Below, piece after piece: positions 8,531-62,387 of a stretch of DNA of 64,000 nucleotides (the first letter of the stretch is position 1; the number at the start of each line of letters is the position of its first letter). The notes below the pieces were generated by a model that saw only the letters and a list, made by a program, of their open reading frames with translations, did not search any database and had not been told where the DNA came from. This stretch comes from Bacteroides sp. (GTDB lineage: Bacteria; Bacteroidota; Bacteroidia; Bacteroidales; SM23-62). The translations under genes were made by a program, and so were the position numbers. The stretch covers positions 2,122-66,121 of the forward strand of contig DRHS01000002.1 of assembly GCA_011053095.1 (NCBI GenBank), given 5' to 3'.

Positions 8531-9802
8531 TTAGAACAATGAATCTACGGATCTGTACTCATTCACTGCTTCCAGCATTGCAATGATGTTTTGTATTGGC
8601 ACATTGCTCTGAATATTATGTACAGGATTAAACACATATCCACCATCACCATTAAAAATTTCAATGTTTTTTCTCACTTCATTTTTTACTTCGGACGGCG
8701 TTCCAAACGGCAATGTTTTTTGTGTATCTATTCCCCCTCCCCAGAAAACAATATCTTGCCCAAATTCTTTTTTAAGCTGTACCGGATCCATCCCAGTTGC
8801 TGAAATCTGAACAGGATTTAATATATCCCATCCCGCCTCAATAAAATCAGGAATCAATTCAATAATAGCTCCACAGGAATGAGTAAATGTTTTCCAATTG
8901 GTTAGTTCATGAATTTTATCATTCAGTATTTTCTGATATGGCTTGAATAATTCACGGTAAGATTCGATAGAACTGAACAGTCCGGTTTGGGTTCCGAAAT
9001 CTGTGCCACTGAGAAATACTACCTGAACGCGGTCCCCCATAGCATCAGCTAAAAGTTCAATATTTTTCAGTGCAATTTCACATTGATTCTCAAATATTTT
9101 ATGGATATATTCCGGTCTTGTCAACAAGGACATATACCATTCCGTTATATCACGAACGCCTTTGGGGTTTTTTAACCAGGGAGCTGGTACTAGTGCTATA
9201 TCACCAAATGCCATGCCTGGTAATGTTGCATATATTCCAAGATCAGTCTCTTCAAATAATTTTTTAGATAATTGTTCATAGTATACAAGATCATCTGGCG
9301 ATAGTATCTCAAATTCTTCAAAATTATCAGAAGGATTTAAATTTAAGTCATCAATGGGTAGTTGTCTTGGTAGAGCGTCAAAGAAGAAACTATCCCTGGG
9401 CATTTTAGCACATGGGGGTAAAGTAGTATCACCTTCAGGATACATGTAGATTGCTTCTGTTTCATCCTTAGTGTAATTAAATTTTTCGGGAACCAGACAA
9501 TCAACGCCTCTCATTGAAAATGGTTTCCAGCCTTCATTCCTAAAACCGAACATATTACCCGGGGTAGAAATTCCTGTAACGTCCAATTGCAGAGCATTGA
9601 TTAGTTGGAGGTCAATTTCTCCAAGCATCTGATATGGTTCAATAACTTTAACCTTGTAGTCAGGGTCGGCGATAATTCTTTGTCTCAAATTATGAGCTGC
9701 CAAAATACCCATTCCTGTTTGAGCTCCAGCACCAAGGTCAACGCATAATTGATCTGGCATTCTATGGTTAATTGTTGCTAATAATCTCTCTCTTGAATTC
9801 AT
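8531..9802 (-). CDS. URO-D superfamily protein (uroporphyrinogen decarboxylase / MtaA-like fold), function unknown, not HemE
   Basis: 423 aa with no signal peptide. N-terminus MNSRERLLATINHRMPDQLCVD is shared in pattern with the three paralogues below. Central THSCG motif at nt 8870-8881. It lacks the HemE RQAGR motif. Its ATG (9802-9800) overlaps the upstream GH2 stop codon (9804-9802) by 1 nt. Confidence 0.75.
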   Translation of the reverse strand: MNSRERLLATINHRMPDQLCVDLGAGAQTGMGILAAHNLRQRIIADPDYKVKVIEPYQMLGEIDLQLINALQLDVTGISTPGNMFGFRNEGWKPFSMRGVDCLVPEKFNYTKDETEAIYMYPEGDTTLPPCAKMPRDSFFFDALPRQLPIDDLNLNPSDNFEEFEILSPDDLVYYEQLSKKLFEETDLGIYATLPGMAFGDIALVPAPWLKNPKGVRDITEWYMSLLTRPEYIHKIFENQCEIALKNIELLADAMGDRVQVVFLSGTDFGTQTGLFSSIESYRELFKPYQKILNDKIHELTNWKTFTHSCGAIIELIPDFIEAGWDILNPVQISATGMDPVQLKKEFGQDIVFWGGGIDTQKTLPFGTPSEVKNEVRKNIEIFNGDGGYVFNPVHNIQSNVPIQNIIAMLEAVNEYRSVDSLF

Positions 9803-12672
9803 TAATTAATTTTAGCATATAAAGTATGGTTGATGAGACTTGCATTATCGATGTCAATTACGAGTTTTGGGTCAAATCCTTCTGAATTCATATAATTCAG
9901 AATACTGCTGAGCATTTGTCTCGCCTCGGGACGATTTTCAAGATCCCGTGAAAGATCCATGCTGGAAACCATTAGCTTTCCTTCACCCATTTTTACTTCA
10001 TAAAGAATTCCAAGTCTGCGGGCTGTGTTCCAGTCATCAATAGGTTGAATAAGGGGACTTAAAGCCGGATCGAATTCATCAAGAATCATATTATTGGAAC
10101 GCATGGCAACATCCCACCATTGCCAGTTGCTATGATATTCGGTCGGGAATATTTCAAACACCGGATGAGCCGGATCACACAATAGTCCTAATGTATATGT
10201 CGGTTGAGAGGGGAAATAAAGCCTATTCCAGAAAATAGGTGCAAAACCGAAGGCTTTATCTATAGGAATAGAGTCCGGGTGGATCAACAGGAGGACCTTA
10301 CCTCCATCGGAAAGAATATCGTTGGATGTCTGGTCAAGTTTATGACATACCATAACCTCAGCTTTTTCCAATGATGGATCAGCCGGATAAATCCAGAGAT
10401 TCCAGGAATTCATGAAATCTGTCCCTTTGAGGATGAATTCTAATTTCAATTGCGAAGGTGCCGGAAGATCTGATGTCTCGATCTCAAAATTACCGGTAGA
10501 ATTCTCATTTCCAATTTGAATATCGAATGGTCCAAGTTCTCCATTTTCAATTTCAGTTCCGTCCATTGTGCTCAGGGTCCATCCAATAAGTGCATTTTCA
10601 ATTGGTTCAGGACCGAAATGAGATACTTCCGCAGATATCTCAATGGTGTCTCCTTTAACCCATGTCATTTTACTAACCCTCATGAGAGGAACGGTCACAT
10701 TGCAGAAATGTCTGAATTCTTCAGGAGAGATATATCCTTTTTCATCCCAAAATGCGTCCAAAATACCTACTGTAGCAGTACCCTGTCCCGGGAAATCATG
10801 AATGTCCAGAAGTTGAAATCCGGCATGCCCAGGAGTTCTTAGAACTGCTTCAATTTCTTCCTTATACAAAATCGATTGAAATCTACCAGAAGCCATAAAC
10901 ATGTCTTTCCACTGCTCACCCATATGATTTTCTTCGAGAAAATCACGGGCTATCTCAAAATTATAGGCCCTGGTTACACCGGTATATTTATTGATCTCGG
11001 CGAAGTTTGGGTATACAACCCACTGACCAATCTCGTGGCTTATTACCGGTCCGTCAAATAAGGTATCCAGATCTGCATAGTCAACTCTCATATCCAATTG
11101 CGCGGCATCCAGCCGGCTGGTATACTGGCTTAGCCAGTTGAATATCCGTGGTTCCTGCCGAACATGAAAATCACTTTCCTCAAGATATGGCCAGCCGGAC
11201 CCACTTGTATATAGCCGCCTTTCATCCTGGGATTTCCAATAATGCAAAATGTCTCTCAAGACTGAATCACGTTTATGAGTCTCCGTTCTGGGCCAGATTT
11301 CATTTCCGACACAAAGCATTGTAAAAGACGGATGATTCCCATACTCCCTGAGTATCCGGTCTCCTTCAGCATAAATAAAATCATTCAATTGTTCATCCTC
11401 TCCCAGGTAAGGCCAGACCGGAGCCTCAACCTGAAGCATGAAACCCTCCTCATCGGCTGCTGTGAATGCTGCTTCGGGTGGACACCAGGAATGAAACCTC
11501 AAATGGTTGAGTCCATGGGCTTTTGCCTGTAGATAAATTTTCCTCCATCCTTCAACATCCATATGCGGATATCCCGTAAGTGGAAATATGGCGCATTCCA
11601 AAGATCCCCTAAGGAAGGTTTTTCTTCCGTTCATAGTAAACTGGCTTCCTTCAATACCAATCTCCCTAAGTCCAAAATCACGATGAACCCTATCCTGGAA
11701 TTCTTCCGCCTCAATAGACACGTTCAGTCTGTAAACATTTGGATTGAACTCATCCCATAAGACTGCTTTGTCTCCCATATCGTATTCTAACCTTATTAAA
11801 GATTCACCTTTTAGAAAAGTTTGTTTGCGTGTAAGGGGTTTAACCGTGTTATTTACGGGACTTTCCTTAGTTGTAAAGGCCTCAAGCTTTACATTTCCGG
11901 AAAGCGCACCACCACTGTAATTTTGAACTTTAATTATTGTATTGACCTTTTTTTCCGCAACATCCGGATATACTTGCACGTCCACAATATGAAGGGGGTC
12001 ACGGACCTCAAGCTGAAGTTTGCCAATCAGACCATTCCAGTTTGTCTGTGTATGGTCTGAAACCGAATGTGCGTTTTTGCTGACATTTATTTTGTAGCGG
12101 TTATCTACACTGATGGTGATTTTATGCTTCCCCGGACTTAACCACTTACTCAAATCATAGCAATGAGGTGCACAAAGACTGTTCCGGCTACCTGTATAAT
12201 GATTGTCCACCCATACTCTGGTTTCCCAATGAGCCCTCTCAAGAAGAAGCTGTACACGTTTAGCATCCCAATTGTCGGGTATAACCACTTCCTTCTGAAA
12301 CCATGCCACTCCGGTAAATTTCTTAGTCTGGGTCAACCAAATTGGCATCTTAATCTCTCCGGGTTGTCTGTAACGAGCGTAGCGTTCATCGGTATAGAAG
12401 GAAATATCTGAAACCTTACCAAACCATTCGGTATCCTCAGTTATTTCATTACCATATCCATATTCAACTGTGGAGCCGGGGAGGATAATCTCATTTTCAA
12501 ATTTCTGCCCGTACCATTCTTCGGTATTTCCGACCAGATCAGGATCCAGCCTGATATTCCAGGTACCTTGCAGATCCAGTAATTCTCTTTCTGGTATTTC
12601 TGAACATGAAAGAAACAGAAAAACAGGTACAACTAGAACCAGGTATCTTAATATCAGCTTAGGGAAATACAT
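9802..12672 (-). CDS. glycoside hydrolase family 2-like lipoprotein (canonical catalytic motifs)
   Basis: GH2 sugar-binding domain pattern (VVIPDNWDAKRVQLLLERAHWETRVWVDNHYTG...CYDLSKWLSPGKHKITISV). TIM-barrel motifs are GLNHLRFHSW, the acid/base-type motif GNHPSFTMLCVGNEIW and the nucleophile-type motif PVISHEIGQW. The track start at 12684 is a TTG. The ATG at 12672 gives MYFPKLILRYLVLVVPVFLFLSC, a lipoprotein signal. Confidence 0.8.
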   Translation of the reverse strand: MYFPKLILRYLVLVVPVFLFLSCSEIPERELLDLQGTWNIRLDPDLVGNTEEWYGQKFENEIILPGSTVEYGYGNEITEDTEWFGKVSDISFYTDERYARYRQPGEIKMPIWLTQTKKFTGVAWFQKEVVIPDNWDAKRVQLLLERAHWETRVWVDNHYTGSRNSLCAPHCYDLSKWLSPGKHKITISVDNRYKINVSKNAHSVSDHTQTNWNGLIGKLQLEVRDPLHIVDVQVYPDVAEKKVNTIIKVQNYSGGALSGNVKLEAFTTKESPVNNTVKPLTRKQTFLKGESLIRLEYDMGDKAVLWDEFNPNVYRLNVSIEAEEFQDRVHRDFGLREIGIEGSQFTMNGRKTFLRGSLECAIFPLTGYPHMDVEGWRKIYLQAKAHGLNHLRFHSWCPPEAAFTAADEEGFMLQVEAPVWPYLGEDEQLNDFIYAEGDRILREYGNHPSFTMLCVGNEIWPRTETHKRDSVLRDILHYWKSQDERRLYTSGSGWPYLEESDFHVRQEPRIFNWLSQYTSRLDAAQLDMRVDYADLDTLFDGPVISHEIGQWVVYPNFAEINKYTGVTRAYNFEIARDFLEENHMGEQWKDMFMASGRFQSILYKEEIEAVLRTPGHAGFQLLDIHDFPGQGTATVGILDAFWDEKGYISPEEFRHFCNVTVPLMRVSKMTWVKGDTIEISAEVSHFGPEPIENALIGWTLSTMDGTEIENGELGPFDIQIGNENSTGNFEIETSDLPAPSQLKLEFILKGTDFMNSWNLWIYPADPSLEKAEVMVCHKLDQTSNDILSDGGKVLLLIHPDSIPIDKAFGFAPIFWNRLYFPSQPTYTLGLLCDPAHPVFEIFPTEYHSNWQWWDVAMRSNNMILDEFDPALSPLIQPIDDWNTARRLGILYEVKMGEGKLMVSSMDLSRDLENRPEARQMLSSILNYMNSEGFDPKLVIDIDNASLINHTLYAKIN

Positions 12673-12795
12673 AATGTTGAACAAGGAATTAGATTTAATA
12701 TCTGATTTGTAACAAATATAAATGTATATGACAAGTCAGATTAGGATAGATTTACCATGTATTATGTTAAATCGGGCGAATTGTATAATATGCCT

Positions 12796-15700
12796 TTATT
12801 CAATGATCGATAGTTTGGCGAATTCATTCTTATATCCATAGTCTACTGAAATTATATAGAAGCCTCTCTTCAGCTGGGATGTATTAAGAATTACTTGCTC
12901 AGAGGTAACTTTTTTATTTATCAGGATCTTTCCGGTCATATCTATAAGGCTGACACCTACGGCTGATTCTCCGACAAATTCAACAATTGCCCTATCCGTC
13001 GCGGGATTGGGATAAAGTTTGAAGGAGGGTTTTTCCAGCAGGTCTTTTTCCTCTCTGTCGATAACAGCAGTAGTATTGGTAAGCTCTCCCACCAGTGTAA
13101 CAATTGAAAATCCTGGCATCAGGAAGGGTGCACTTGCATCTGCTTCCCCATAAGCCTTGAGATTCTCCTCTTCTGATGTTACATAGGGAATTAACTTGTC
13201 CAATGTCAGATGTGAAGGCAGAGTACTCAGATCGAAGCTGATATTCTGGGGATTTTTATCATAGTTGATTGCAACGATGATAATTTTCGTTGAATCTTTG
13301 TCCATATATGCAGAAAGGAACTGTTCGTAAGCAGCACCAACGGTACTTGCGCCATCAGAACGTTCCACTTCAAAACGCTGGGATCCGGGTCGGACGAAAC
13401 GGCTGTAATTTCCAAGTGTCCAAAGGGTCCTGGTGACCCAGAAGCTTCCATCGGTATGCGTTGCGTCATCCGGATCCGGATAAAAGTTCATCAGGCCAAA
13501 GCGGTATTCGTGGGTCTGGTAGACCGCATTAACAAGACTTGTCCACCAGTCCCATCCAGTGGCGTTTCCTTCAGTCAGGTCGATATGGATAATTCTTGCT
13601 GTCCACAGGGAATATTCAATGGGTGTCACATTATCCCTTCCTTCCTCGTAATCAGCTCCAAGCAGGCTGTATTCTGTCTGCCAGAAAGACAATGATGAAT
13701 CAAGGGAATTGATCTTGTTCAGTAACTTTTGCCTATGACTGACGGCAGTGGAAACATCCGGATTGGACCAGTAAGAGTGGCCGGCAACGTATTTTGACAT
13801 ACTGGGAAGATCGCCTACATAATCCTGGCTGGCTGGATTCCAGAAGGCATTTATCTGGTCTGAAGTGGCCGGATCACCCAGATTAGTTGAGTGAAGCACC
13901 TGTAGATGCCCAGCCTCGGGGATCAGGATCTTTGAATTGACACCATGCTCGGTAAATTTTGCATCAATGGCCCTTGCAAGATTTGCAATTTCACTATTTG
14001 TTGCATAGGATCCGGATTGTACTGCACCACCATGTGCATACGACCATGCCCACTGAGGCTCATTAACCGGGCTTATAACTTCAAAAGGAGTGCCGTTATC
14101 CTGGAAATGTCTGGCAATTTTGGCAAGGTATTCTGCGTAGTCAACATACTTGTCGCCTGCCAGGTTATACCCAATGGTAGTATCGTGGGCAAAAGAATAA
14201 CCATTTTTGGTCATATGATAGGGCGGGGTTGTAGCCCATCCCGTCAGATATTCCACTCCTGCATTTAAAGCCCAATCCCTGAACCAGTCCGAACCTGGCT
14301 GTTTTGTAAAATCATAGGATCCATCTGCGAGCATAAAGCTCGGTGTTTCTTGCAGCCATGCACTGGAATGAAAACCGGAATCGTCCATATATGCCGATCC
14401 GTCCCCGATATGGTATCTCCAGTTGGATAGTCCAATTCCTTTGGGGCTCCCATCGGGATACATTTCCTGGCTGAACAGGAGCATTGCTATTGAATCACGC
14501 TTGACATCCGGCCATTTGGCAATCCACTGGGTAACCTCTCCGTCAGAGGCTCCGAAATGATGAATTTTCTGCCTGGGTTCATCAAATTTTACCGTGAATG
14601 TCATGTCCTCTGTAGCCACTATTTTGGCTGAATTTCTGCCGGATACATTTCCCTGCTGGTCCTTAGCCCTGACAGACAAATTGTATTCAGAGGAGGAAAG
14701 AAGTCTCAGCTTCATGGCCTCCAAATCGGAAACTGCAATAATTCTCTCACCATCATATATATCATAGGAGCTTACCGCAATATTATCACTTGAAGCAGTC
14801 CATGCAATGATTGCTGATTTAGCATCCACCTTGCCGACAAGCAGTTCGCCAGGATCTGTTGGTGCAACGGTATCGGTCTTCTCATATTCAGTATCCGGAT
14901 TAAATCCCCAGTCCGATGTGAAGATGAACTTGTCTACTTTGACATTTGCTGCACCGGGCGCAATGTTTATGGAATGATAACCCGGGGCCAATGACGGCGA
15001 TTTGTACAGGTTCAACCATTGCCAGCCTTGTGTCATGTGTACGCTGTCAAGCGCTGAATAAGTATCCTGATTGTCTGCCTTTACAAAGAATGGTGTTGCA
15101 ATATCGGCATCAATATTCATGTATGCCCATAGGCTGTAGGTACCTCCTCCGTCAACATATCCATAAAGAACTGATTCATCATCCATAGCTATCTCAGCAG
15201 AAGCTCCATTCCAGAAACCGTATGTGGTATCACCGTCTGATGCAGTACTCCAGTCTCCAAATGTATAGTCCTCCAGTTCAAATACATAAGGGTCAGTATT
15301 GGGACGAATAGGAGAGGTGTCATTTGCAATTGCAAAAATCTGTTCCCCTGTAAGGATCTCTTCCCATATAGCAATGTCATCGTACTTTCCATTTATGGTT
15401 CTGTAGACCCTTCCTTCCTCAATACTGGTACCGAAATAGAATTTCACAAGGTCCATTTCTGAAAGCAAAGATTCCGTAGACCCTGCAAAAGACCGTGCCC
15501 CGTCCAGATATCCTATAACATCACCTTCATTGTAGGTGAATGCCAGGTGTACCCATTTATCAGATGGTAAGGGATTAACATCTTCTATGACCGTCCAGGG
15601 TGGATTGGTTACCAGTCCATAGTTACTTCCTGCCCTTGGAGAAAGATAAAAATGTGAGGTTCCATCGGTATTGTCCCACTCAAATATTTCCTGCCACCAT

Positions 15701-16674
15701 TCTTCAAACTCCGAATCCCAGTAGAACCATGTTGAAAATGTAAAGACATCTTCCGTAACCATGGGTTGTTGTGCAAGCATGTAGGCCGTATCAAGGTGAT
15801 GCATGACAGCCACAGTTCCACCACGTTCAGGAACCCTTTCAAAGCTTATATTTTTCAGGTCCAGCATATTGTCTCCTATGGAATCATTCCCGTTCCCGTC
15901 AAGCGGGAACCAGACAGTTGCTTTGGAGTACAGAGTTGCCTTGTCAATAACCTTAAGAGGTTTATTCTCCTTTGACAATTCTTTGACAGTTGCAGCATCC
16001 AGCGCCTTATGAAAGAATTTCAGGTCATCCATTTTCCCATCATGTGGAAAATTCCTTGCCAGGTCACCACCACCGCCATTAAGGAAAAAGAAGGTGTCGA
16101 CTGCAACTTCGCTGGGAAGGTTCTGGACAGATCCTTCTGCATACATCTCACCATCCAGATAGACTGTCATGAATGTATCCTTTTGGGTAAGAGCAATATG
16201 GTGCCATTTTAAGTCAGGCAGCTCTGGTTCGGCGGTGATCCATTCCCATGCGTCCCCGTAGAAGATTACCCCGTAATTAATTCCCCAGAGGTTGGGTGAC
16301 ATATAGATGTATTTTCCTTCCATAGGATGCCCGGCCTTAGTATTGTTAAACTCAAAAATCTGCTTCCAGTCCCCCTGTGTACCCTCATAAAAATACCAGC
16401 AGGAGACTGTATACTCATCCTGACCTGGAGGCATCATGGCTGACATGGCATACATGTATCCCGCAGAATCTTTTGCCACCTCGGCAACATAGCCCTTCAG
16501 AGAATCCCAGACTACATTCACATCAACCATTCCAAGATTGACATTACCCATACTGTCAACACCACTTTCTTCGAAAGCATAATAGGCAAACAGACTGTCA
16601 GCACCCTGGGCGTTGATCAGGTTCATACCTGCTGTTAGCAGGTATAATAGAATGAGAGTAAAGAATCGGTTCAT
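12796..16674 (-). CDS. secreted multidomain glycanase: 2 LamG-like (Laminin_G_3) modules + CBM-like module + FN3 + GH30-like catalytic domain + T9SS C-terminal sorting domain
   Basis: - Signal peptide: MNRFFTLILLYLLTAGMNLINAQ.
- LamG_3-type terminal strands: KMDDLKFFHKALDAATVKEL and KYDDIAIWEEILTGEQIFAI.
- FN3: AIIAWTASSDNIAVSSYDIY...YNLSVRAKDQQGNVS.
- GH30-type motifs: HHFGASD, SPVNEPQW, FWQTEYS.
- C-terminal KLYPNPATDRAIVEF...FYIISV matches type-A T9SS CTDs. Confidence 0.85.
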   Translation of the reverse strand: MNRFFTLILLYLLTAGMNLINAQGADSLFAYYAFEESGVDSMGNVNLGMVDVNVVWDSLKGYVAEVAKDSAGYMYAMSAMMPPGQDEYTVSCWYFYEGTQGDWKQIFEFNNTKAGHPMEGKYIYMSPNLWGINYGVIFYGDAWEWITAEPELPDLKWHHIALTQKDTFMTVYLDGEMYAEGSVQNLPSEVAVDTFFFLNGGGGDLARNFPHDGKMDDLKFFHKALDAATVKELSKENKPLKVIDKATLYSKATVWFPLDGNGNDSIGDNMLDLKNISFERVPERGGTVAVMHHLDTAYMLAQQPMVTEDVFTFSTWFYWDSEFEEWWQEIFEWDNTDGTSHFYLSPRAGSNYGLVTNPPWTVIEDVNPLPSDKWVHLAFTYNEGDVIGYLDGARSFAGSTESLLSEMDLVKFYFGTSIEEGRVYRTINGKYDDIAIWEEILTGEQIFAIANDTSPIRPNTDPYVFELEDYTFGDWSTASDGDTTYGFWNGASAEIAMDDESVLYGYVDGGGTYSLWAYMNIDADIATPFFVKADNQDTYSALDSVHMTQGWQWLNLYKSPSLAPGYHSINIAPGAANVKVDKFIFTSDWGFNPDTEYEKTDTVAPTDPGELLVGKVDAKSAIIAWTASSDNIAVSSYDIYDGERIIAVSDLEAMKLRLLSSSEYNLSVRAKDQQGNVSGRNSAKIVATEDMTFTVKFDEPRQKIHHFGASDGEVTQWIAKWPDVKRDSIAMLLFSQEMYPDGSPKGIGLSNWRYHIGDGSAYMDDSGFHSSAWLQETPSFMLADGSYDFTKQPGSDWFRDWALNAGVEYLTGWATTPPYHMTKNGYSFAHDTTIGYNLAGDKYVDYAEYLAKIARHFQDNGTPFEVISPVNEPQWAWSYAHGGAVQSGSYATNSEIANLARAIDAKFTEHGVNSKILIPEAGHLQVLHSTNLGDPATSDQINAFWNPASQDYVGDLPSMSKYVAGHSYWSNPDVSTAVSHRQKLLNKINSLDSSLSFWQTEYSLLGADYEEGRDNVTPIEYSLWTARIIHIDLTEGNATGWDWWTSLVNAVYQTHEYRFGLMNFYPDPDDATHTDGSFWVTRTLWTLGNYSRFVRPGSQRFEVERSDGASTVGAAYEQFLSAYMDKDSTKIIIVAINYDKNPQNISFDLSTLPSHLTLDKLIPYVTSEEENLKAYGEADASAPFLMPGFSIVTLVGELTNTTAVIDREEKDLLEKPSFKLYPNPATDRAIVEFVGESAVGVSLIDMTGKILINKKVTSEQVILNTSQLKRGFYIISVDYGYKNEFAKLSIIE

Positions 16675-26658: not shown

Positions 26659-26782
26659 TAAAATTGATTTTTGTGGTTTCAATTTCAATCGAAATGAAAC
26701 CGGTTTAAAAAATTGTTTAGAGGAAGGTCTTTTCATAGTTTTGATTTTAGTTAGGAGTATGTACATATTACTATTTTCAATA

Positions 26783-29553: not shown

Positions 29554-29564
29554 TTTCTTCAACG

Positions 29565-32621: not shown

Positions 32622-32668
32622 ATTCAAAATATTTCAAAAGAATTACGGGCTGACCGCAACGATAGAAA

Positions 32669-50368: not shown

Positions 50369-50520
50369 GGACGGTCTATCCATTCAGGCTGTATGTCAAG
50401 CAGCCAAAAGCAGGTTTTGATTCAATAAATGAAGGATTTATACCAATTTACTTCAATTGATTGGAATAATTTAGCAGAATAAACCCGGTATTACCCGGAT
50501 TTAACTTACATCTTTTGAGA

Positions 50521-52512: not shown

Positions 52513-52516
52513 ATAC

Positions 52517-54338: not shown

Positions 54339-55499
54339 ATGAAGATTACTGATGTAAAAGTCTGGCTTGTCGAGGGAATAAAGTACAACTGGACCATGCT
54401 GAAGATCTATACCGATGAAGGTTATACAGGAGTAGGAGAGGCTACCAACTGGCCTGGAAGCCCTATCGTTGAAGCTGCAGCAAAACACGCGGGTGAAAGG
54501 ATAATAGGCATGGATCCTATCCGAACGGATTATATCTGGACCAAGCTTTACCGGGACCTTAACTGGGTAGGACCATTTGGCGCTAGTTTATGTGCCATTA
54601 GTGGCATAGATATGGCCCTGCTTGACCTGAAGGCCAAGGTCCTCGGAGTCCCATGCTATGACTTATTGGGAGGTGCATACAGGAATGAGATCCTGCTCTA
54701 TGCAAATTACTGGTTTATAGATGGGGGACATAATGCCCGTGATTATGCTGATCAGGCACTAAAGGTGGTTGAGAAAGGTTTTACGGGACTCAAATTTGAT
54801 CCATTTGCACACACAAGTTATTTTTATGGGGACGATCTTTCCACAAATATGGCATTGGACCGTGACCAGCAGGATAAATCCTATGAAATTGTGAAAGCCG
54901 TCAGAGAGGCAGTTGGTCCAAATGTCGATATACTGATAGAAACACATGCCCTGCTGAATTTCAAGACTGCCATCATAATGGCCGAACGCTTAGCCGAACT
55001 TGATATTACATGGTTTGAAGAACCTGCCGGACCTGAGAACGAAAAGACATTGAAGGTTTTCAGGGAGCGCCTTGATCCCAGGGTCTCAATATGTGTGGGT
55101 GAGAGGCATTATACCCGCTATGGTATCAGGCCAATCCTGGAAAACGGTATTTGCGATATCATTATGCCCGATATTACCCGATGCGGTGGACCATCCGAGA
55201 TGAAGCGAATGGCGACAATGGCAGAAACCTATAGTGTACTGATTGCTCCGCACAATCCCAACGGTCCGTTGAGCACCCTGGCAAGTGGACATGTATGTGC
55301 CTCTATACCAAATTTATACCGACAGGAATTTATGCTGAAAGATGTGCTCTGGAGAGATGAAATCATCGATCACCCCCTTGAGTTCAAGAATGGGCACCTG
55401 GTACTTTCAGACCGATCGGGACTTGGGGTCGATCTTGTAGAAGAAGTGATGGAAGCGCATCCTGGTATTCGTAAAGCGAAACAGGGTTTTTATGTATAA
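54339..55499 (+). CDS. enolase-superfamily sugar-acid dehydratase (mandelate racemase/muconate lactonizing family; galactonate/mannonate dehydratase-like)
   Basis: MKITDVKVWLVEG...LKIYTDEGYTGVGEAT is a DgoD/ManD-like N-terminal capping domain. Barrel motifs: GIDMALLDLKAKVLGVPCYDLLGG, VDILIETH, ITWFEEP, ICVGER, DIIMPDITRCGG. Confidence 0.85.
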   Translation: MKITDVKVWLVEGIKYNWTMLKIYTDEGYTGVGEATNWPGSPIVEAAAKHAGERIIGMDPIRTDYIWTKLYRDLNWVGPFGASLCAISGIDMALLDLKAKVLGVPCYDLLGGAYRNEILLYANYWFIDGGHNARDYADQALKVVEKGFTGLKFDPFAHTSYFYGDDLSTNMALDRDQQDKSYEIVKAVREAVGPNVDILIETHALLNFKTAIIMAERLAELDITWFEEPAGPENEKTLKVFRERLDPRVSICVGERHYTRYGIRPILENGICDIIMPDITRCGGPSEMKRMATMAETYSVLIAPHNPNGPLSTLASGHVCASIPNLYRQEFMLKDVLWRDEIIDHPLEFKNGHLVLSDRSGLGVDLVEEVMEAHPGIRKAKQGFYV

Positions 55500-55517: not shown

Positions 55518-56309
55518 ATGATACCCATTGATCTCAAAGACAAAGTGGCCATTGTGACAGGTGTTTCCAGTGGGATCGGTGCCGGTGTTGCGGCAACCCT
55601 TGCAGAAGCTGGCTGCCACATATCCTGTTGCGCAAAGAATAATCCGGATTCCCCGGGAGTCTTGAATTTCATACATACAGTGGAATCTCTTGATCGCAAA
55701 TGCATGTATCAGAAAGCAGATGTCACATCCACAGAGGAAATTCAATCCTTAGTAAAAAATACCGTTGATAAATATGGCAGGATTGACATCCTTATATCCA
55801 ATGCGGGAATGAATGTTTTTAAAGGTGCTGAGGAAGCTTCAGAAGGAGACTGGGATTTTAATATGAACCTCAATCTGAAGTCTCACTGGACAATTGCCAA
55901 ACTATGTAAACCATATCTATCAGAAAGTCCGAATGGTGTAATTATTATTAACTCCTCCAATCATGCCTACAGTACAATACCCGGTTGTTTCCCCTATAAT
56001 GTATCCAAGGCTGGAATTTCTGGCCTGGTACAGTCCATTGCCATTGAATGGGGACCTGATATCCGAACCATTGGGATTGCTCCCGGATTTATCGTTGTCG
56101 AAAGCACAAAAGCATGGTTCGATTCCTTCCCCGATCCCGGGGCTGAGCTGGAAAGAACCATACAGAGACATCCTGCGGGCAAGATTGGGACTCCCCAAGA
56201 CATAGGGGCGTTCTGCGCTTTCCTGGCCAGTGATTATGCGGGATTTATTACAGGTGTTACCTACCTTATCGACGGGGGCAGATCTGCTCTAATGCAGGAT
56301 GATCAATAA
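55518..56309 (+). CDS. short-chain dehydrogenase/reductase (SDR)
   Basis: TGVSSGIGAG (TGxxxGxG), NAG and YNVSKAG (YxxxK). 263 aa. The stop TAA (56307-56309) overlaps the next ATG (56309-56311). Confidence 0.9.
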   Translation: MIPIDLKDKVAIVTGVSSGIGAGVAATLAEAGCHISCCAKNNPDSPGVLNFIHTVESLDRKCMYQKADVTSTEEIQSLVKNTVDKYGRIDILISNAGMNVFKGAEEASEGDWDFNMNLNLKSHWTIAKLCKPYLSESPNGVIIINSSNHAYSTIPGCFPYNVSKAGISGLVQSIAIEWGPDIRTIGIAPGFIVVESTKAWFDSFPDPGAELERTIQRHPAGKIGTPQDIGAFCAFLASDYAGFITGVTYLIDGGRSALMQDDQ

Positions 56310-57205
56310 TGCAGGCTGAACTCATATATGATGCACGTGCAACGCTCGGCGAGGGTCCATTCTGGGACCATCAAAATGACCTGCTGATCTGGGTCGACAT
56401 CGAAGAAGGCAGTGTGCATTTTTACAATCCTGCCAATGGGCAGGATAAATACCGGGAGCTTGGAACGAGAATTGGAATGGCAGTACCAAATACCGAAGGA
56501 CATATAATCGCAGCCCTACAGGATGGATTCGCCTGGATTATTGAAGACAGTAATCCGATTTATATTGCGGATCCGGAAAATGATCTTAAAAATAACAGGT
56601 TCAATGACGGGAAATGTGATCCTCAGGGACGGCTCTGGGCAGGGACGATGGATTTGGAAGCTGAGGAAAATTGCGGAAGTCTTTATCGTATGAATGAAGA
56701 CCTCACGGTCTCTCAAATGATATCCGGTGTCAGCATTTCAAACGGACTGGCATGGTCGCATGATTCTAAAACCATGTATTACATAGATACCCTTAGCTAC
56801 AATGTAATGTCATATGAATTTAGTCCCTCAGAAGGTATCATTGCCAACCCGGAGACAGTTATCGTAATCCCGAAAGACCATGGCGCCCCCGACGGCATGA
56901 CCATTGACCGGGATGGAAAGCTCTGGATCGCTCACTGGGGTGGGGGAAATGTCAGCCGCTGGGATCCCGATACCGGTCAATTGATGAAGGTAATAATCGT
57001 TCCGGTGCCTCAACCCACATCCTGTGTTTTTGGAGGCAGTCTGCTGGATACTCTTTATATTACATCTGCCAGAACAGGATTATCCGTACAGGAACTTAAT
57101 GAATACCCGGAAAGCGGGGGATTATTTGCTGTAAAACCGGGGGTGAGCGGCTATCACTCTTCCTGCTTTAAAGGAAAACCCGGGCGGATTGATGATAAGA
57201 TGTGA
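56309..57205 (+). CDS. SMP-30/gluconolactonase/LRE-family lactonase
   Basis: LGEGPFWDHQNDLLIWVDI, RFNDGKCDPQGRLWAGTM, SNGLAWSHDSKTMYYIDT, PDGMTIDRDGKLWIAHWGGG and TSCVFGG...LYITSA form a regucalcin-type six-blade pattern. Confidence 0.85.
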   Translation: MQAELIYDARATLGEGPFWDHQNDLLIWVDIEEGSVHFYNPANGQDKYRELGTRIGMAVPNTEGHIIAALQDGFAWIIEDSNPIYIADPENDLKNNRFNDGKCDPQGRLWAGTMDLEAEENCGSLYRMNEDLTVSQMISGVSISNGLAWSHDSKTMYYIDTLSYNVMSYEFSPSEGIIANPETVIVIPKDHGAPDGMTIDRDGKLWIAHWGGGNVSRWDPDTGQLMKVIIVPVPQPTSCVFGGSLLDTLYITSARTGLSVQELNEYPESGGLFAVKPGVSGYHSSCFKGKPGRIDDKM

Positions 57206-57250: not shown

Positions 57251-58324
57251 ATGAGTACAAATAGAGAAAATCTTATAAGATCCCTGAAACGTGAAGGCTT
57301 TGATCATGTGCCAGTAGATTTCTGGCTATGTGAATCGCAGATTAAGGCCTTTAAGGATCGGATAGGACATGAAGATTACCAGTACTGGTTTAATCTGAGC
57401 CACAGAATGTTTGAAATGGAGGTTAGGAGAAATTTTAAAGATGGGCATGAACTGTTTCATAGAGAAAAGCTTCCTTCAGACACAAAGTTTGATGAATATG
57501 GAATAGGTCATTCCAAAGGTTCAGAATTGGCATTTCATATGACAAGGATGCACCATCCGCTGAAAGGAGCCGGTTTGAGCGAGATTCTCGATTATCCTTA
57601 CCCCTCAGTAGACTCCCAAAAGGAGAAGAAAATAGAAGAAATTGTAAATGGTTTGCATAGCCAGGGACTAGCTTCCTTTGCTTTCATGCAGATGACTGTA
57701 TGGGAAGCCTCATGGTATCTTAGATCCATGGAGGAATTGATGATGGACATGATGATGATGGATGAAAAAGCAACCGTTCTTCTTGATAAAATCACCGAGT
57801 TTGCCTGCGCCAAAGCCGGTGCATATGCGGAAGCCGGAGTGGACATCTTGAGCCTTGGAGATGATATCGGTACTCAGAATTCTATAATGATTGATGTGGG
57901 ACTATGGGAGCAATGGCTGAAACCCAGGATCTCAAAGGTTATCGAGACTGCCCGGGAAATCAATCCGGATATATTAATATTTTATCATTCCTGCGGATAT
58001 ATTGTTCCCTTCATCGACCAGCTTATCGAAGTTGGCGTGGATATATTGAACCCTATCCAGCCCGAATGTATGAGTTTTGATGAAATCGCCAATAAGTATG
58101 GCAATAGGGTGTCATTTTGGGGAACAATCGGTACGCAGGAACTCTTGCCCTTTGGTACAGCTAATGAAGTCAGGAAAGTGAGTACATCAAGGCTTGAGAA
58201 ATGTGGAGAAAAGGGAGGTCTTTGCATTGGTCCGACACACCTTGTCGAACCCGAAGTTCCCTGGGAAAACCTTATGGCAATCAAGGAAGCCGTCAGTGAA
58301 TTTGAAAGCAAAATTAAAGGGTGA
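57251..58324 (+). CDS. URO-D superfamily protein (MtaA/HemE-like fold), function unknown
   Basis: 357 aa with no signal peptide. N-terminus MSTNRENLIRSLKREGFDHVPVD. HSCG motif at nt 57986-57997. Its C-terminal part (VDILNPIQPE..FWGTIGTQELLPFGT..EV) closely parallels 8531-9802 (WDILNPVQIS..FWGGGIDTQKTLPFGTPSEV). Confidence 0.75.
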   Translation: MSTNRENLIRSLKREGFDHVPVDFWLCESQIKAFKDRIGHEDYQYWFNLSHRMFEMEVRRNFKDGHELFHREKLPSDTKFDEYGIGHSKGSELAFHMTRMHHPLKGAGLSEILDYPYPSVDSQKEKKIEEIVNGLHSQGLASFAFMQMTVWEASWYLRSMEELMMDMMMMDEKATVLLDKITEFACAKAGAYAEAGVDILSLGDDIGTQNSIMIDVGLWEQWLKPRISKVIETAREINPDILIFYHSCGYIVPFIDQLIEVGVDILNPIQPECMSFDEIANKYGNRVSFWGTIGTQELLPFGTANEVRKVSTSRLEKCGEKGGLCIGPTHLVEPEVPWENLMAIKEAVSEFESKIKG

Positions 58325-58329
58325 CTATA

Positions 58330-59052
58330 ATGAAATGCATCCAATGTCATCTATGCTTTATTTTTCTGATACTTCTTACATCAGGTATGGATGCACAAAA
58401 TCAATTCCCTGAACAAATGTATCTCGATAATATTAAGACAGAACTGCAGCTTGAGTGGCCTGAAAACCGTACCATAAACATCGTTTTTCATGGTCATTCT
58501 GTGCCTGCAGGATATTTTTCCACTCCTGAAGTAAATACCCTGGAATCATATCCACATCTGACCCTGAGGAAAATTAAAGAATCATACCCCAATGCAGTTG
58601 TTAATGTTATTTTAACTGCAATCGGAGGAGAACATTCAGAACAGGGTGCTGCTCGATTCAAGGCTGATGTAATGAACCATAAACCCGACCTTGTGGTTAT
58701 AGATTATGCGCTGAATGACAGAAGTATAGGTCTCCAAAAAGCAAGACTGTCATGGGAAATAATGATAAAAATGGCCAAGTCTTTCGAAGTTAAGGTAATA
58801 CTTCTTACCCCAAGCCCTGATACCAGTGAAGATATCCTTCAGCCGAATGCTCAACTTGCTCAACACAGTAAACAGATCCGGGAGCTGGCATTACTGCATG
58901 AAGTTGGACTTGTTGACAGTTATTCCATTTTTAAAGAGATAGCTGCAGAAGAATCGCTTGAAAAATACATGGCACAGAGCAATCATATAAATGCACTTGG
59001 ACATTGGCTGGTATCTGAGCAGCTGTTTGAATGGTTTAAGCCAGGTAATTAA
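58330..59052 (+). CDS. SGNH/GDSL-type hydrolase (probable carbohydrate esterase), secreted
   Basis: Signal peptide MKCIQCHLCFIFLILLTSGMDAQ. Block I-like IVFHGHSVPAG (GHS in place of GDS). Block III-like VVIDYALNDR. Block V-like SNHINALGH. The track start at 58321 is a GTG overlapping the previous stop; the ATG at 58330 is preferred. Confidence 0.65.
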   Translation: MKCIQCHLCFIFLILLTSGMDAQNQFPEQMYLDNIKTELQLEWPENRTINIVFHGHSVPAGYFSTPEVNTLESYPHLTLRKIKESYPNAVVNVILTAIGGEHSEQGAARFKADVMNHKPDLVVIDYALNDRSIGLQKARLSWEIMIKMAKSFEVKVILLTPSPDTSEDILQPNAQLAQHSKQIRELALLHEVGLVDSYSIFKEIAAEESLEKYMAQSNHINALGHWLVSEQLFEWFKPGN

Positions 59053-59078: not shown

Positions 59079-62000
59079 ATGATGAAAAGAGAAGTTAAAG
59101 TATGGAGGGATAAGGTAATTATTCCGACCTACAAAATCGGGAAACCCGAAAAATTTCCAATATTTCTTGAAAAACGTGTGTACCAGGGCAGCAGCGGAAG
59201 TGTTTATCCCCATCCTGTCATTGAAAATATAAGCGACGAAAAATCAAATGAGGAGTGGGAGGTTATATTTCTGGAAAATGACTACCTGAAAATAATGGTA
59301 TTGCCCTCCCTTGGAGGTAGGATACAGATGGCATATGACAAGATCCGCCAACGTCATTTTGTTTATTACAATCAAGTAATTAAACCTGCACTGGTAGGCT
59401 TAACAGGTCCCTGGATATCGGGTGGAATAGAGTTCAACTGGCCCCAGCACCACAGGCCGAGTACCTTCGATCCGGTTGATTTTGACCTGGAAGAAAATGA
59501 AGACGGTAGTTGTACAATCTGGGTCAGTGAGGTGGAAAGGATGTTCCGATCCAAAGGCATGGCAGGATTCACCTTGTATCCCGATAAGGCATATCTGGAA
59601 ATATCTGTAAAATTATACAACCGTACACCCCTGCCACAGACCTTCCTTTGGTGGGCCAACCCGGCTGTTAAAGTTAACGACCATTACCAATCGGTATTCC
59701 CTCCAGATGTTAATGCTGTTTTTGACCATGGTAAAAGGGACGTATCTGAGTTCCCTATTGCCAGAGGTGAATATTATAAAGTTAATTACGCCCCAGGAAC
59801 AGATATTTCCAGGTATAAAAACATTCCCGTTCCCACATCCTATATGGCCATTACTTCCAAGTACGATTTTGTTGGAGGTTACGAAAATGATACACGATGC
59901 GGATTGCTTCATGTGGCAGATCATCATGTGTCACCGGGCAAAAAACAATGGACATGGGGAAGTGGAGAGTTTGGCAAAGCGTGGGACCGTAATCTCACAG
60001 ATGAAGACGGACCTTATATTGAGCTGATGTGTGGAGTTTATACAGATAATCAGCCGGATTTTTCCTGGATGCACCCATACGAGGAAAAAAGCTTCAAACA
60101 ATACTTTATGCCCTATTATAATGTGGGACTGGTAAAAAATGCCACGAAAGAAGCTCTGGTAAACCTTGAAATTAATGAAAGGAAGGCTGTTGTAAAAGTC
60201 TATGTGACTTCTGAGTACATACATTGCCGCATAACCCTTAAAAAAAATGATGATTTCTTTTTGGATGAAAGACATGATTTGTCACCAGAGAAAGATTTTG
60301 AGTGCAGTGTGGATATAAGTCCGGCAAAATTCTATGAACTTCAATTGGAGGTTTTAGATAATAAAGGAAATTTGCTTGTTTCCTGGCATCCGGAAAAGCC
60401 AATTGAAAATCCTGCTCCTAAACCTGCTATCGCCGCAAAACTACCCAGAGAAATTGATAGCATAGAACAGCTTTACCTGCGTGGTTTACACCTCGAACAA
60501 TACCGGCATGCCACATATGATCCAGTAGAATATTATATGGAAGCCTTATCAAGAGAACCGGGAGACAGTAGAAGCAATAATGCCTTGGGTATCTGGTACT
60601 TGAGAAGAGGTATGTTCGAGCTGGCTCTGAAATATTTCAATCGAGCGATAGATACATTCACTGAGAAGAATCCCAATCCTAAGGATGGAGAAACATACTT
60701 TAACCGGGGCCTTACATTAAGGTTTCTTGGAAGAATGGACCAGGCCTATGCATCTTTCTATAAGTCCTGCTGGAATGCAGAGTGGCAGGATGCAGGGTAT
60801 TTCAATCTGGCTCAGATCGATTGCCATCGGGGTAATTATGGAAAGGCTCATGAACATGTGAACAGGTCGCTTATTAAAAACTGGCATAATCATAAGGCAA
60901 GGCATCTTAAAATTATTATCCTGAGGAAGCTTGGTAAGAAGGATAATGCACAGGAACTTATTCGTGAATCTTTGTCCATCGATAGATTTAATTTTGGTGC
61001 TCTGTTTGAGAAGTACCTCCTAAGTTGTAATTCAGACGATCTGGATCAGGTCAGGATACAGTTTCGCGATTATGTACATAATTACATTGAGTTTTCGCTT
61101 GATTATGCACAGGCAGGAATGTTTGAAGAAGCAATCAGACTTTTGAATGAATATAGCAGTGGAAAAGATACCATGTATCCAATGGCACAATATTTTCTTG
61201 GCTGGTACCATGAGCAGTTGAGGATAGGTGATGATGCAATGAAACACTATAAAATGGCTGAGGAAATGCCTTCTGATTATTGCTTTCCAAACCGGCTCGA
61301 AGAAGTTGTGGTACTGCAATCCGCGCTTAAAATTAATCAGGAAGATGCAAAAGGCCTCTACTACCTGGGTAATTTCTGGTATTCTTCAAAGCAGTACCAA
61401 AAGGCAAGAGAGTGCTGGGAGGCTTCCCTGAAAATCGACGATACTTTTCCAATAACTTACAGGAACCTGGCCTTATTGTACTTTAATAAAGAAAATAATG
61501 CGGAGCTTGCACGTAACATGCTTGAAAGAGCTTTTGAACTTGATGGTCAGGATGCGCGATTATTGATGGAGTTAAGCCAGTTATATAAAAAACTGAACCT
61601 GCCGGCCAGTAAACGATTAACCTTATTGGAAAATAATCTGGAACTCACCCATTCACGTGATGATCTTTATCTGGAAAGGATTGAACTCTACAATATTCAA
61701 GGTGATTACAAAAGGGCATTAACCCTAATAATGAAACGGAACTTTCATCCATGGGAAGGCGGGGAAGGGAAAGTACCCCTTCAATATGTTACCTCCTGTA
61801 CTGAGTTGGCCAAACAGAATATTGCACAGGGGAACTTAAAAATCGCACAGGACTATCTTGAAAAAGCACAACAATATCCTGAAAACCTGGGAGAAGGCAA
61901 ACTGTTTGGCACACAGGAAAATGATATTTTTTATTGGTTGGGTTGTGTCTATGAGGGTATGGGTCAGGACAAAGAAGCCAGAAAATACTGGAATAAAGCT

Positions 62001-62387
62001 TCTGCCGGATTAATAATACCGGGTCAGGCCATGTTTTACAATGATCAGCCTGCCGATAAAATATTCTACCAGGGCCTGGCATTACAAAAATTGGGCAGGC
62101 GGAAGGAAGCTCAATCACGGTTTAACAAACTTATTGAATACGGGGAGGAGCACATGAACAGCGATGTGCGAATCGACTATTTTGCTGTATCATTACCGGA
62201 TATTCTAATATGGGAAGATAACCTGAATCTCAGGAACCAAACACATTGCCACTATTTAATGGGGCTGGGTAAATTGGGTCTGGGAAATTCGGCAGAGGCA
62301 TTAAATGAATTTTATGAAACATTGGGACGGGACAGATATCATATTTCGGCCTTGCTTCACAAATACATGGCTGAGAACCCAATGTAA
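59079..62387 (+). CDS. 1102-aa cytoplasmic protein: N-terminal beta-rich domain (DUF5107/DUF4380-like, recalled) + long C-terminal TPR array (YphG-like)
   Basis: No signal peptide. The C-terminal ~650 aa contains many TPR-like units (ALGIWYLRRGMFELALKYFNRAI, YFNRGLTLRFLGRMDQAYASFYKS, YYLGNFWYSSKQYQKARECWEASLKID, TYRNLALLYFNK...ARNMLERAFELD, FYWLGCVYEGMGQDKEARKYWNKA). The N-terminal family name is from memory of similar ~1100-aa proteins such as E. coli YphG. Confidence 0.6.
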   Translation: MMKREVKVWRDKVIIPTYKIGKPEKFPIFLEKRVYQGSSGSVYPHPVIENISDEKSNEEWEVIFLENDYLKIMVLPSLGGRIQMAYDKIRQRHFVYYNQVIKPALVGLTGPWISGGIEFNWPQHHRPSTFDPVDFDLEENEDGSCTIWVSEVERMFRSKGMAGFTLYPDKAYLEISVKLYNRTPLPQTFLWWANPAVKVNDHYQSVFPPDVNAVFDHGKRDVSEFPIARGEYYKVNYAPGTDISRYKNIPVPTSYMAITSKYDFVGGYENDTRCGLLHVADHHVSPGKKQWTWGSGEFGKAWDRNLTDEDGPYIELMCGVYTDNQPDFSWMHPYEEKSFKQYFMPYYNVGLVKNATKEALVNLEINERKAVVKVYVTSEYIHCRITLKKNDDFFLDERHDLSPEKDFECSVDISPAKFYELQLEVLDNKGNLLVSWHPEKPIENPAPKPAIAAKLPREIDSIEQLYLRGLHLEQYRHATYDPVEYYMEALSREPGDSRSNNALGIWYLRRGMFELALKYFNRAIDTFTEKNPNPKDGETYFNRGLTLRFLGRMDQAYASFYKSCWNAEWQDAGYFNLAQIDCHRGNYGKAHEHVNRSLIKNWHNHKARHLKIIILRKLGKKDNAQELIRESLSIDRFNFGALFEKYLLSCNSDDLDQVRIQFRDYVHNYIEFSLDYAQAGMFEEAIRLLNEYSSGKDTMYPMAQYFLGWYHEQLRIGDDAMKHYKMAEEMPSDYCFPNRLEEVVVLQSALKINQEDAKGLYYLGNFWYSSKQYQKARECWEASLKIDDTFPITYRNLALLYFNKENNAELARNMLERAFELDGQDARLLMELSQLYKKLNLPASKRLTLLENNLELTHSRDDLYLERIELYNIQGDYKRALTLIMKRNFHPWEGGEGKVPLQYVTSCTELAKQNIAQGNLKIAQDYLEKAQQYPENLGEGKLFGTQENDIFYWLGCVYEGMGQDKEARKYWNKASAGLIIPGQAMFYNDQPADKIFYQGLALQKLGRRKEAQSRFNKLIEYGEEHMNSDVRIDYFAVSLPDILIWEDNLNLRNQTHCHYLMGLGKLGLGNSAEALNEFYETLGRDRYHISALLHKYMAENPM

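Follow-up and report, generated by a model that had tools for sequence, protein, structure and literature searches.

A bidirectional polysaccharide utilisation locus with four URO-D/MtaA-like genes in an uncultured Bacteroidales bacterium, and its possible link to B12-dependent demethylation of O-methylated sugars

Layout and conservation of the locus

The window analysed here is a stretch of 64,000 nucleotides from the genome of an uncultured Bacteroidales bacterium, and the subject of this work is a 54-kb locus within it. In the six-frame list of open reading frames (ORFs), the locus consists of two divergent arrays of co-directional genes, i.e. a minus arm that runs from 36443 down to 8531 and a plus arm that runs from 36647 to 62387, with the divergence point at 36443/36647. 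Gene identities were assigned from the ORF map together with Pfam and NCBIfam profile scans of the window proteins. Adjoining susC-like and susD-like genes are accompanied by co-located genes for carbohydrate-active enzymes and by a dedicated sensor/regulator, and we are nearly certain that this is a true polysaccharide utilisation locus (PUL) of the bidirectional SusC/SusD type. Its most unusual part is a set of four genes for URO-D/MtaA-like proteins (paralogues, or types, a to d). We tentatively favour the reading that this PUL may serve the use of an O-methylated, sulfated galactan or fucan, and that the URO-D/MtaA-like enzymes may take part in a B12-dependent demethylation.

The first-pass annotation of this DNA had listed one susC/susD pair with one hybrid two-component system (HTCS) regulator; four GH30-like domains, two of them on giant LamG-array proteins of the type IX secretion system (T9SS); two GH2-like genes, one GH59, two S1 sulfatases (one interrupted) and an SGNH esterase; and galM, two sugar:H+ porters and a cytoplasmic sugar-oxidation block. 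All of these were recovered by the Pfam scans and translation. The list did not include the four URO-D/MtaA-like genes, a DUF5107+TPR protein and folD (7550-8431).

Read from the divergence point, the minus arm begins with the intact, S1_16-like S1 sulfatase (34869-36443; PF00884, 7e-54), followed by an ELWxxDGT-repeat protein with a T9SS tail (32708-34672; TIGR04534, 2.5e-66; Por_Secre_tail), the SusC-like TonB-dependent transporter (29565-32627; CarbopepD_reg_2, Plug, TonB_dep_Rec_b-barrel) and the SusD-like protein (27871-29595; SusD_RagB, SusD-like_3). The next gene (26783-27868) encodes a 361-aa protein with, by eye, an apparent N-terminal signal or lipoprotein-like sequence and no match in Pfam or NCBIfam; its position suggests a SusE/F-like surface protein. 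All four GH30 domains lie in this arm (PF14587, E 1e-92 to 1e-137). Two are carried by LamG-array proteins with a T9SS C-terminal domain, one of up to 1773 aa with four Laminin_G_3 stretches (21445-26766; PF14587, 1e-92; Por_Secre_tail) and one of 1292 aa with two LamG domains (12796-16674; PF14587, 5e-93; Laminin_G_3, Por_Secre_tail). Between them are two smaller GH30_4-like enzymes of 530 aa (19750-21342; PF14587, 1e-137) and 538 aa (18123-19739; PF14587, 1e-119) as well as sugar:H+ porter 1 of the major facilitator superfamily (MFS; 16745-18139; Sugar_tr, 9e-113). The arm continues with a secreted 960-aa GH2 that resembles GH2_20 beta-galactosidases (9802-12684; Glyco_hydro_2_N, Glyco_hydro_2), the stop of which is overlapped by 1 nt by the start of URO-D/MtaA-like paralogue a (8531-9802). 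On the same strand and directly downstream lies folD, for a methylene-tetrahydrofolate (THF) dehydrogenase/cyclohydrolase (7550-8431; THF_DHG_CYH, THF_DHG_CYH_C). A scan of 7300-9900, an interval that takes in the 99-nt gap between folD and the gene for paralogue a, gave no terminator-like site, and folD is presumed to belong to the minus-arm operon.

The plus arm begins with a 1272-aa, LacZ-type GH2-like protein with an N-terminal extension of ~300 aa (36647-40465; five GH2/LacZ domains), the aldose 1-epimerase galM (40494-41525; PF01263, 3e-82), MFS sugar:H+ porter 2 (41556-42938; Sugar_tr, 1e-111), URO-D/MtaA-like paralogue b (42982-44154) and the HTCS regulator (44293-48444; Reg_prop, Y_Y_Y, HisKA, HATPase_c, Response_reg, HTH_18). 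These are followed by the interrupted S1 sulfatase (48461-50368), a GH59 beta-galactosidase-like enzyme with the N-terminus, by eye, of an apparent lipoprotein (50515-52512; PF02057, 1e-94; GH59_C) and paralogue c (52385-53626), the true start of which is probably near 52490. The oxidation block comprises an RraA-like candidate 2-keto-3-deoxy-acid aldolase (53635-54300; PF03737, 6e-32), an enolase-superfamily sugar-acid dehydratase (54339-55499; MR_MLE_N, MR_MLE_C, with sub-threshold matches to galactonate-dehydratase models), a short-chain dehydrogenase/reductase (SDR) that is a candidate aldose 1-dehydrogenase (55518-56309; adh_short_C2, 8e-47) and an SMP-30/gluconolactonase-type lactonase (56309-57205; PF08450, 3e-82). 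Finally, the arm encodes paralogue d (57251-58324), an SGNH/GDSL esterase with a signal peptide by eye (58321-59052; Lipase_GDSL_2) and the cytoplasmic 1102-aa DUF5107+TPR protein (59079-62387; PF17128, 1e-58, plus TPRs).

An orthologue of the DUF5107+TPR protein, 54% identical, is encoded between URO-D-like paralogues in Clostridium sediminicola (L022). A weak DUF4432 match in a neighbouring gene suggests that its N-terminal domain may be mutarotase-like, and a literature search on DUF5107 returned one irrelevant paper. Three DUF5107+TPR proteins of ~1030-1110 aa are present in the genome (59079-62387 in the window, C4:6355-7230 and C89:4330-5211). Upstream of the PUL and unrelated to it, positions 1-2390 of the window hold an AbiEi-like antitoxin fragment and a Fic/DOC protein with DUF4172.

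The loci of the closest GH59 homologues in metagenomes (L096, L097 and L098) have much of this gene content. The metagenomic contig L096 encodes a LamG-GH30-T9SS protein, sulfatases, a GH30, an MFS porter, GH59, GH2, an SGNH esterase and a second GH2; its orthologue of MFS porter 1, beside GH59, is 73% identical and its SGNH esterase 50% identical. L097 encodes SusC, SusD, the four-gene oxidation block (39-74% identical), an MFS porter, GH59 and GH30, and L098 the oxidation block, GH59 and GH2. The oxidation block is tied to GH59. Two other contigs from metagenome-assembled genomes (MAGs) share synteny with parts of the window, at 69-83% identity overall and at 71-83% for the pieces with URO-D b and c. 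In one of them (L105), the ELWxxDGT-repeat protein is encoded to one side of the divergence point, with the GH2-like protein, galM, the MFS porter and paralogue b to the other; the second (L106) has the sulfatase, GH59 and then an orthologue of paralogue c (79% identical). Because the ELWxxDGT-repeat protein is 79% identical in the syntenic L105, it is a stable member of this type of locus.

The PUL was not found in the one same-genus genome, searched with the DNA of the plus arm and with GH59, and GH59 was not found in 100 other genomes sampled from the order. A literature search combining GH30, GH59, PUL and sulfatase found no matching locus. Since the core recurs on other contigs, the locus is not unique and the PUL type is conserved; we are nearly certain that it is real and, so far as we have found, uncharacterised.

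Glycan-degrading enzymes and the likely substrate

The 530-aa GH30, the one of the four that was compared with PDB entries, best matches 3clw (353 bits, E 3e-104). Other GH30 subfamilies reach at most 59 bits, with 32 bits for the GH30_5 galactanase 24td, and GH30_3 is not represented among the matches. The protein in 3clw comes from Bacteroides fragilis, is uncharacterised and belongs to subfamily GH30_4 (PMC13431644), and the characterised GH30_4 enzymes are beta-D-fucosidases only (PMC5966431, PMC11058611).

These matches bear on the alternative that the locus is a PUL for beta-1,6-glucan (pustulan) or for the beta-1,6-galactan of type II arabinogalactan, built around GH30 endo-enzymes. In its favour, four GH30 domains are present, and according to a 2026 structure paper the cleft of GH30_4 resembles that of the GH30_5 beta-1,6-galactanase at subsites -1 and -2 (PMC13431644). 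However, because the best PDB match of the GH30 is to GH30_4, the characterised members of which are beta-D-fucosidases, beta-1,6-glucan and beta-1,6-galactan become less likely targets; moreover, Pfam scans detected no GH43, GH35 or GH16 domain in the locus. To our knowledge, sulfatases and a kinase-less oxidation block are also not part of the characterised pustulan PUL. In total, we regard a PUL of this kind as very unlikely. The beta-1,6-glucanase or beta-1,6-galactanase activity that the first-pass annotation had considered for the GH30 domains thus gives way to a tentative GH30_4-like assignment.

The other enzymes fit a decorated, galacto-configured glycan. Over residues 62-951, the 960-aa GH2 matches PDB 8U01 at E 1e-248, a close similarity to a classified member that supports its placement in GH2_20. 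8U01 is the sole GH2_20 structure, and GH2_20 is a beta-galactosidase subfamily reported to act on decorated substrates (PMC12243196). GH59 resembles galactocerebrosidase over its entire length (E 9e-79 in the PDB search). The intact sulfatase has the S1 formylglycine motif C-x-P-x-R in an open frame (CSPSR at residue 79), and its nearest PDB entries are 6ust (8e-118) and 9fo1 (4e-110), the latter labelled as a kappa-carrageenan S1_16 sulfatase. The SGNH esterase fits acetyl groups on the glycan.

Translation of the second sulfatase gene gave one in-frame TGA (48644-48646), located after the signal peptide and ahead of CSPSR, and Pfam matched the restart product over profile positions 128-301 only. 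Sequencing error, pseudogene and recoding are all considered as explanations of the TGA. The orthologue in L106 is 71% identical, and the L106 contig begins downstream of the TGA position and so offers no comparison at the stop. The 1272-aa GH2-like protein matches LacZ in the PDB near 1e-38 and contains ADES and FDQY stretches. Gln792 in FDQY (39020-39022) lies at the position of the LacZ nucleophile according to the alignment of the first-pass annotation only. A recent single-base lesion as the cause of this Gln was ruled out, because the 73% identical L105 orthologue has the same residue (FDQF); the Gln is thus conserved within this GH2-like group.

The dehydratase of the oxidation block scores under every NCBIfam equivalog cut-off, and PDB searches with it and with the RraA-like protein returned unannotated structural-genomics entries only. 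The kinase-less block would suit a sugar that is not phosphorylatable at C6, e.g. D-fucose, and the GH30_4 match makes beta-D-fucose or a C6-modified galactose a candidate sugar. A PUL for porphyran, agar or carrageenan was rejected, as Pfam scans detected no GH16, GH86, GH117, GH50 or GH82/GH150 domain in the locus.

Altogether, we consider it probable that the target is a beta-linked, galacto- or fuco-configured glycan that is sulfated and acetylated. The first-pass annotation had suggested a decorated beta-galactan or a beta-1,6-linked glycan; a decorated galacto-configured glycan is the best fit to GH59, GH2_20, the S1_16-like sulfatase and the SGNH esterase, while the beta-1,6 linkage is made less likely by GH30_4. 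Its remark that methyl groups may also be present on the glycan finds real support in the four MtaA-like genes and in corrinoid machinery encoded in trans, to which we now turn.

URO-D/MtaA-like genes and corrinoid machinery

All four paralogues match PF01208: a (423 aa; 1e-17), b (390 aa; 7.5e-33), c (5.6e-24, profile positions 72-272) and d (357 aa; 2e-19). All four are predicted to be cytoplasmic, and no signal peptide is evident by eye in any of them. The hemE model TIGR01464 gave 26-41 bits or no match at a cut-off of 303, and hemE identity was ruled out on these scores; true hemE genes of the class reach ~450 bits on PF01208. The H-x-C-G motif at the zinc position of MtaA is retained in all four (HSCG in a and d, HFCG in c). 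In type b, H279-N-C281 aligns with the H-x-C zinc ligands of MtaA and is invariant in the family, as is D366, which occupies the column of the third MtaA ligand, a Cys; this column holds His in a and d.

By sequence and by profile, the best solved relative of type b is MtaA (PDB 4ay7; 18-19% identity). An AlphaFold2 model of type b (pLDDT 82, pTM 0.84) has MtaA 4ay7 as its top fold match (TM 0.81), followed by UROD and MetE. The protein is ~50 residues longer than MtaA, and a beta-rich stretch at residues ~90-136 of the model is probably an insertion.

The fold is also compatible with a different account, in which the locus is an ordinary PUL for a beta-galactan or fucoside with sulfate or acetyl groups and the URO-D-like proteins act on sugars or sugar acids without a cofactor (e.g. 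as decarboxylases or isomerases), with no role for B12; the link to the corrinoid activase RACo described below would then stem from an anaerobic habitat that the carriers share. A cofactor-free decarboxylase is among the enzymes with the URO-D fold, and in the fold comparison UROD structures come close to MtaA in score. Moreover, type b lies beside dehydratase, SDR or lactonase genes in some loci (L050, L060, L061, L063). The H-x-C-G motif in four of four paralogues and the low hemE scores argue against this account.

Paralogues of this family are expanded in the genome. It holds ~17 PF01208 genes, whereas 200 genomes of the same class have 0-3, nearly always a single hemE; the additional paralogues lie on nine further contigs (C135, C156, C191, C3, C206, C229, C124, C232, C243). 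A canonical hemE was not found in the 83%-complete assembly, in which the best PF01208 match scores 122 bits. Six clusters that contain other paralogues were inspected. One paralogue lies between a GntR regulator and RhaT-RhaA-kinase genes, one among rhamnulose-phosphate-aldolase-like genes and one after GH95 and GH127. A fourth is flanked by an SSF symporter and a GH43/CBM6 enzyme, a fifth by a BNR protein and a phosphoesterase, with GH20 nearby, and two are in a cluster with sialidase, SASA-esterase, NanA-like and GlcNAc-2-epimerase genes. One MtaA-like enzyme per sugar pathway, often beside a porter, is the pattern that would be expected of substrate-specific demethylases sharing one corrinoid system.

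Type b is widespread. A search of 1.84 billion cluster representatives returned 3351 relatives at E <= 1e-3, and homologues of 44-83% identity occur in at least ten phyla (Bacteroidota, Ignavibacteriota, Planctomycetota, Spirochaetota, Chloroflexota, Acidobacteriota, Bacillota and others); the nearest named relatives are in Prolixibacteraceae MAGs, and cultivable carriers of the family include Sedimentisphaera salicampi and Clostridium sediminicola. We fetched 80 loci around b-type orthologues and counted neighbours within 10 kb, with matches taken at >=40% identity. An a-type gene was present in 17/80 loci, a c-type gene in 12/80, an MFS porter in 16/80 and a DUF5107-TPR gene in 2/80. On a contig with a 74% identical b-type gene, five consecutive radical-SAM genes lie downstream of GH95, GH29, GH92, an MFS porter and URO-D b (L001:13332-20733).

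Corrinoid machinery is encoded elsewhere in the genome, on contig C140 (L007:2067-11704). This contig contains a cobW-like gene, a GntR regulator, a corrinoid protein of 222 aa (B12-binding_2 and B12-binding, with DLHDIG in agreement with the DxHxxG motif), a Pterin_bind methyltransferase, a MetV-fused methylene-THF reductase (MTHFR), formate-THF ligase, a FocA channel and a RACo-domain activase; the genome thus has both a candidate methyltransferase II (MT II) and an activating enzyme. An ISAZ013-type transposase lies at the start of the contig. By analogy, the C140 set would correspond to the partners needed by aryl O-demethylases, together with enzymes to oxidise methyl-THF to formate. FolD is the enzyme of the methyl-THF-to-formate route that is missing from C140; folD is present twice in the genome, at 7550-8431 at the end of the PUL and at C13:21212-21718.

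RACo co-occurs with type b. Among 101 genomes sampled from the order, 14 have URO-D-like matches to the b profile, nine have RACo and eight have both (Fisher p = 1.3e-7, a value to be read with the reservation that related genomes are not fully independent). Across at least ten phyla, RACo is present in 46 of 50 carriers of b orthologues, against backgrounds of 9% in the order and 33% (33/100) in a sample of Planctomycetota; among planctomycete carriers it is present in 10/10. Moreover, a corrinoid protein is encoded within 10 kb of the b-type gene in 7/80 loci, and in a Chloroflexota locus (L070), genes for a sugar-binding protein, an ABC ATPase, a permease and a corrinoid protein directly precede URO-D d, c and b on one strand.

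Both the co-occurrence and the L070 arrangement count against cofactor-independent sugar enzymes. Conversely, that account is favoured by the PUL having no corrinoid gene of its own, by the corrinoid protein lying near so few b-type loci (7/80) and by a RACo background that reaches 33% in one phylum. On balance, we judge it unlikely, although it deserves serious attention.

The C140 genes also bear on a further possibility, namely that the URO-D-like proteins are second methyltransferases of the MtaA type (MT2), which pass a methyl group from methyl-cobalamin to a thiol or other acceptor, e.g. in a split methionine synthase, and are not sugar demethylases. The closest solved relative is indeed a methylcobalamin:CoM methyltransferase, and the genome has two stand-alone homocysteine methyltransferases, which together with the corrinoid protein, pterin methyltransferase, MTHFR and RACo resemble split MetH systems. 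However, a full-length MetH is also present; the third zinc ligand is His or Asp instead of the Cys of the thiol-binding MtaA; the inspected paralogues mostly stand beside sugar porters and glycosidases; and C140 runs on into formate-THF ligase and a formate channel, which fits methyl oxidation rather than methionine synthesis. We therefore hold a role as MT2 to be decidedly improbable.

Several observations weigh against the B12-dependent demethylation of sugars that we favour. At the level of the proteins, the MtaA, CmuA and MtbA models of NCBIfam (TIGR01463 and equivalogs) give 22-100 bits, below cut-offs of 235-600; paralogue a is among those with sub-threshold MtaA/CmuA matches. The four paralogues are mutually only 13-23% identical and are therefore old, and type c covers only the middle of the URO-D profile. 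At the level of the genes, the corrinoid protein, MT II and activase are not in one operon with the PUL: none is in the window, they lie on another contig, and the corrinoid protein is within 10 kb in only the 7/80 loci given above. The core PUL occurs in L096-L098 without visible URO-D genes; this PUL type therefore does not depend on methyl removal. With regard to the genome, RACo is common in some phyla, and its co-occurrence may partly reflect an anaerobic lifestyle; the C140 genes could serve a split methionine synthase, given the two stand-alone homocysteine methyltransferases; and the organism, which has a haem-copper oxidase, is therefore not a strict anaerobe and is probably facultative. 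Finally, we know of no precedent for an attack of Co(I) on an aliphatic methyl ether, the known O-demethylases acting on aryl ethers.

Proposed pathway and comparison with known systems

Starting from the observed gene content, fold, motifs, gene neighbourhoods and co-occurrence, we propose the following route, in which the substrate, the direction of methyl transfer and every catalytic activity are presumed. The two giant GH30_4-like enzymes with LamG arrays would be exported through the T9SS and attack the polymer, and the two smaller GH30_4-like enzymes, the GH2_20-like and GH59 beta-galactosidases, the S1 sulfatases and the SGNH esterase would act next, so that these surface and periplasmic enzymes would free sulfate, acetate and monosaccharides, some of them O-methylated. 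The two MFS porters would bring the monosaccharides into the cytoplasm. There, the four URO-D/MtaA-like zinc enzymes would function as 'methyltransferase I' (MT I), in which zinc would act on the ether oxygen as a Lewis acid, and would move the methyl group from the O-methylated sugar onto Co(I) of the corrinoid protein of contig C140, which all four would share. The pterin-binding methyltransferase would then yield methyl-THF, from which the MetV-fused MTHFR, FolD and formate-THF ligase would form formate and ATP; the FocA-type channel would export the formate, and RACo would re-reduce oxidised cobalt, Co(II). The freed sugar would pass through galM and then either through standard routes or through the kinase-less block of dehydrogenase, lactonase, dehydratase and aldolase.

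A wider version of this proposal, which we put forward with still more reserve, is that O2-free, B12-dependent sugar demethylation occurs across phyla, with many substrate-specific MtaA-like MT I paralogues sharing one corrinoid protein, one methyl-THF-forming enzyme and RACo.

Algal, plant, cyanobacterial and soil polysaccharides contain O-methylated sugars, which block ordinary sugar catabolism. The only sugar demethylase that we know of is a cytochrome P450, which needs oxygen; no P450 was found in the 83%-complete genome. Literature searches found no report joining corrinoid or cobalamin with methylated sugars, including 6-O-methyl-D-galactose, and nothing joining URO-D with a PUL or a glycoside hydrolase. 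So far as we have found, B12-dependent methyl-ether removal has been described for no sugar. If true, the proposed reaction would provide an anaerobic counterpart to the P450 sugar demethylases, with the methyl group oxidised to formate and a gain of ATP, and would give anaerobes of sediments, soils and guts a means of handling O-methylated sugars that has, so far as we have found, not been described. The locus and its genome provide a concrete gene set for this idea, i.e. four MT I candidates next to presumed glycosidases and porters together with a full corrinoid, THF and formate back end. Independently of methyl removal, the glycan targeted by this PUL type, once known, with its GH59, GH30_4, GH2_20, sulfatases and kinase-less route, would give GH30_4 and bacterial GH59 a natural substrate.

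Among GH30-centred PULs, the beta-1,6-glucan PUL of Bacteroides thetaiotaomicron with the GH30_3 enzyme BT3312 is likewise a SusC/D locus around GH30; the PUL described here differs in having GH30_4-like enzymes and, in addition, GH59, GH2_20, sulfatases, an esterase, an oxidative sugar route and MtaA-like genes. The oxidation block follows the step order of non-phosphorylative aldose oxidation, as in pseudomonads (D-fucose/L-arabinose) and anaerobes (L-fucose), i.e. dehydrogenase, lactonase, dehydratase and aldolase with no kinase, whereas here the aldolase candidate is RraA-like and the dehydratase remains under all NCBIfam equivalog cut-offs.

MtaA of Methanosarcina mazei (4ay7) is the best sequence and fold match of type b, with the H-x-C zinc motif aligned; the proteins studied here differ from it by the low identity, by Asp or His in place of the third Cys, by NCBIfam scores of 46-100 bits against 235-600, and by the absence of a coenzyme M context. 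The aryl methyl-ether O-demethylases of acetogens and Desulfitobacterium (Odm, Vdm, Mtv) use the same types of MT I, corrinoid protein, MT II and activase; this genome has all four types, with URO-D-fold proteins as the MT I candidates, and the methyl group would be expected to end on THF here too. In contrast to those systems, the MT I candidates are scattered in sugar-catabolic loci with a single partner set elsewhere, the substrates would be aliphatic methyl ethers of sugars and not phenyl methyl ethers, and the host is a fermentative or facultative member of the Bacteroidales in which the methyl group is apparently oxidised to formate. Similar in function is the P450 6-O-methyl-D-galactose demethylase of the porphyran and agar PULs of marine Bacteroidetes, which is likewise PUL-encoded and strips the O-methyl group of a sugar so that catabolism can proceed (PMC6292453). 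That enzyme depends on O2 and releases formaldehyde, whereas the mechanism proposed here would be an O2-free transfer of the methyl group to cobalamin.

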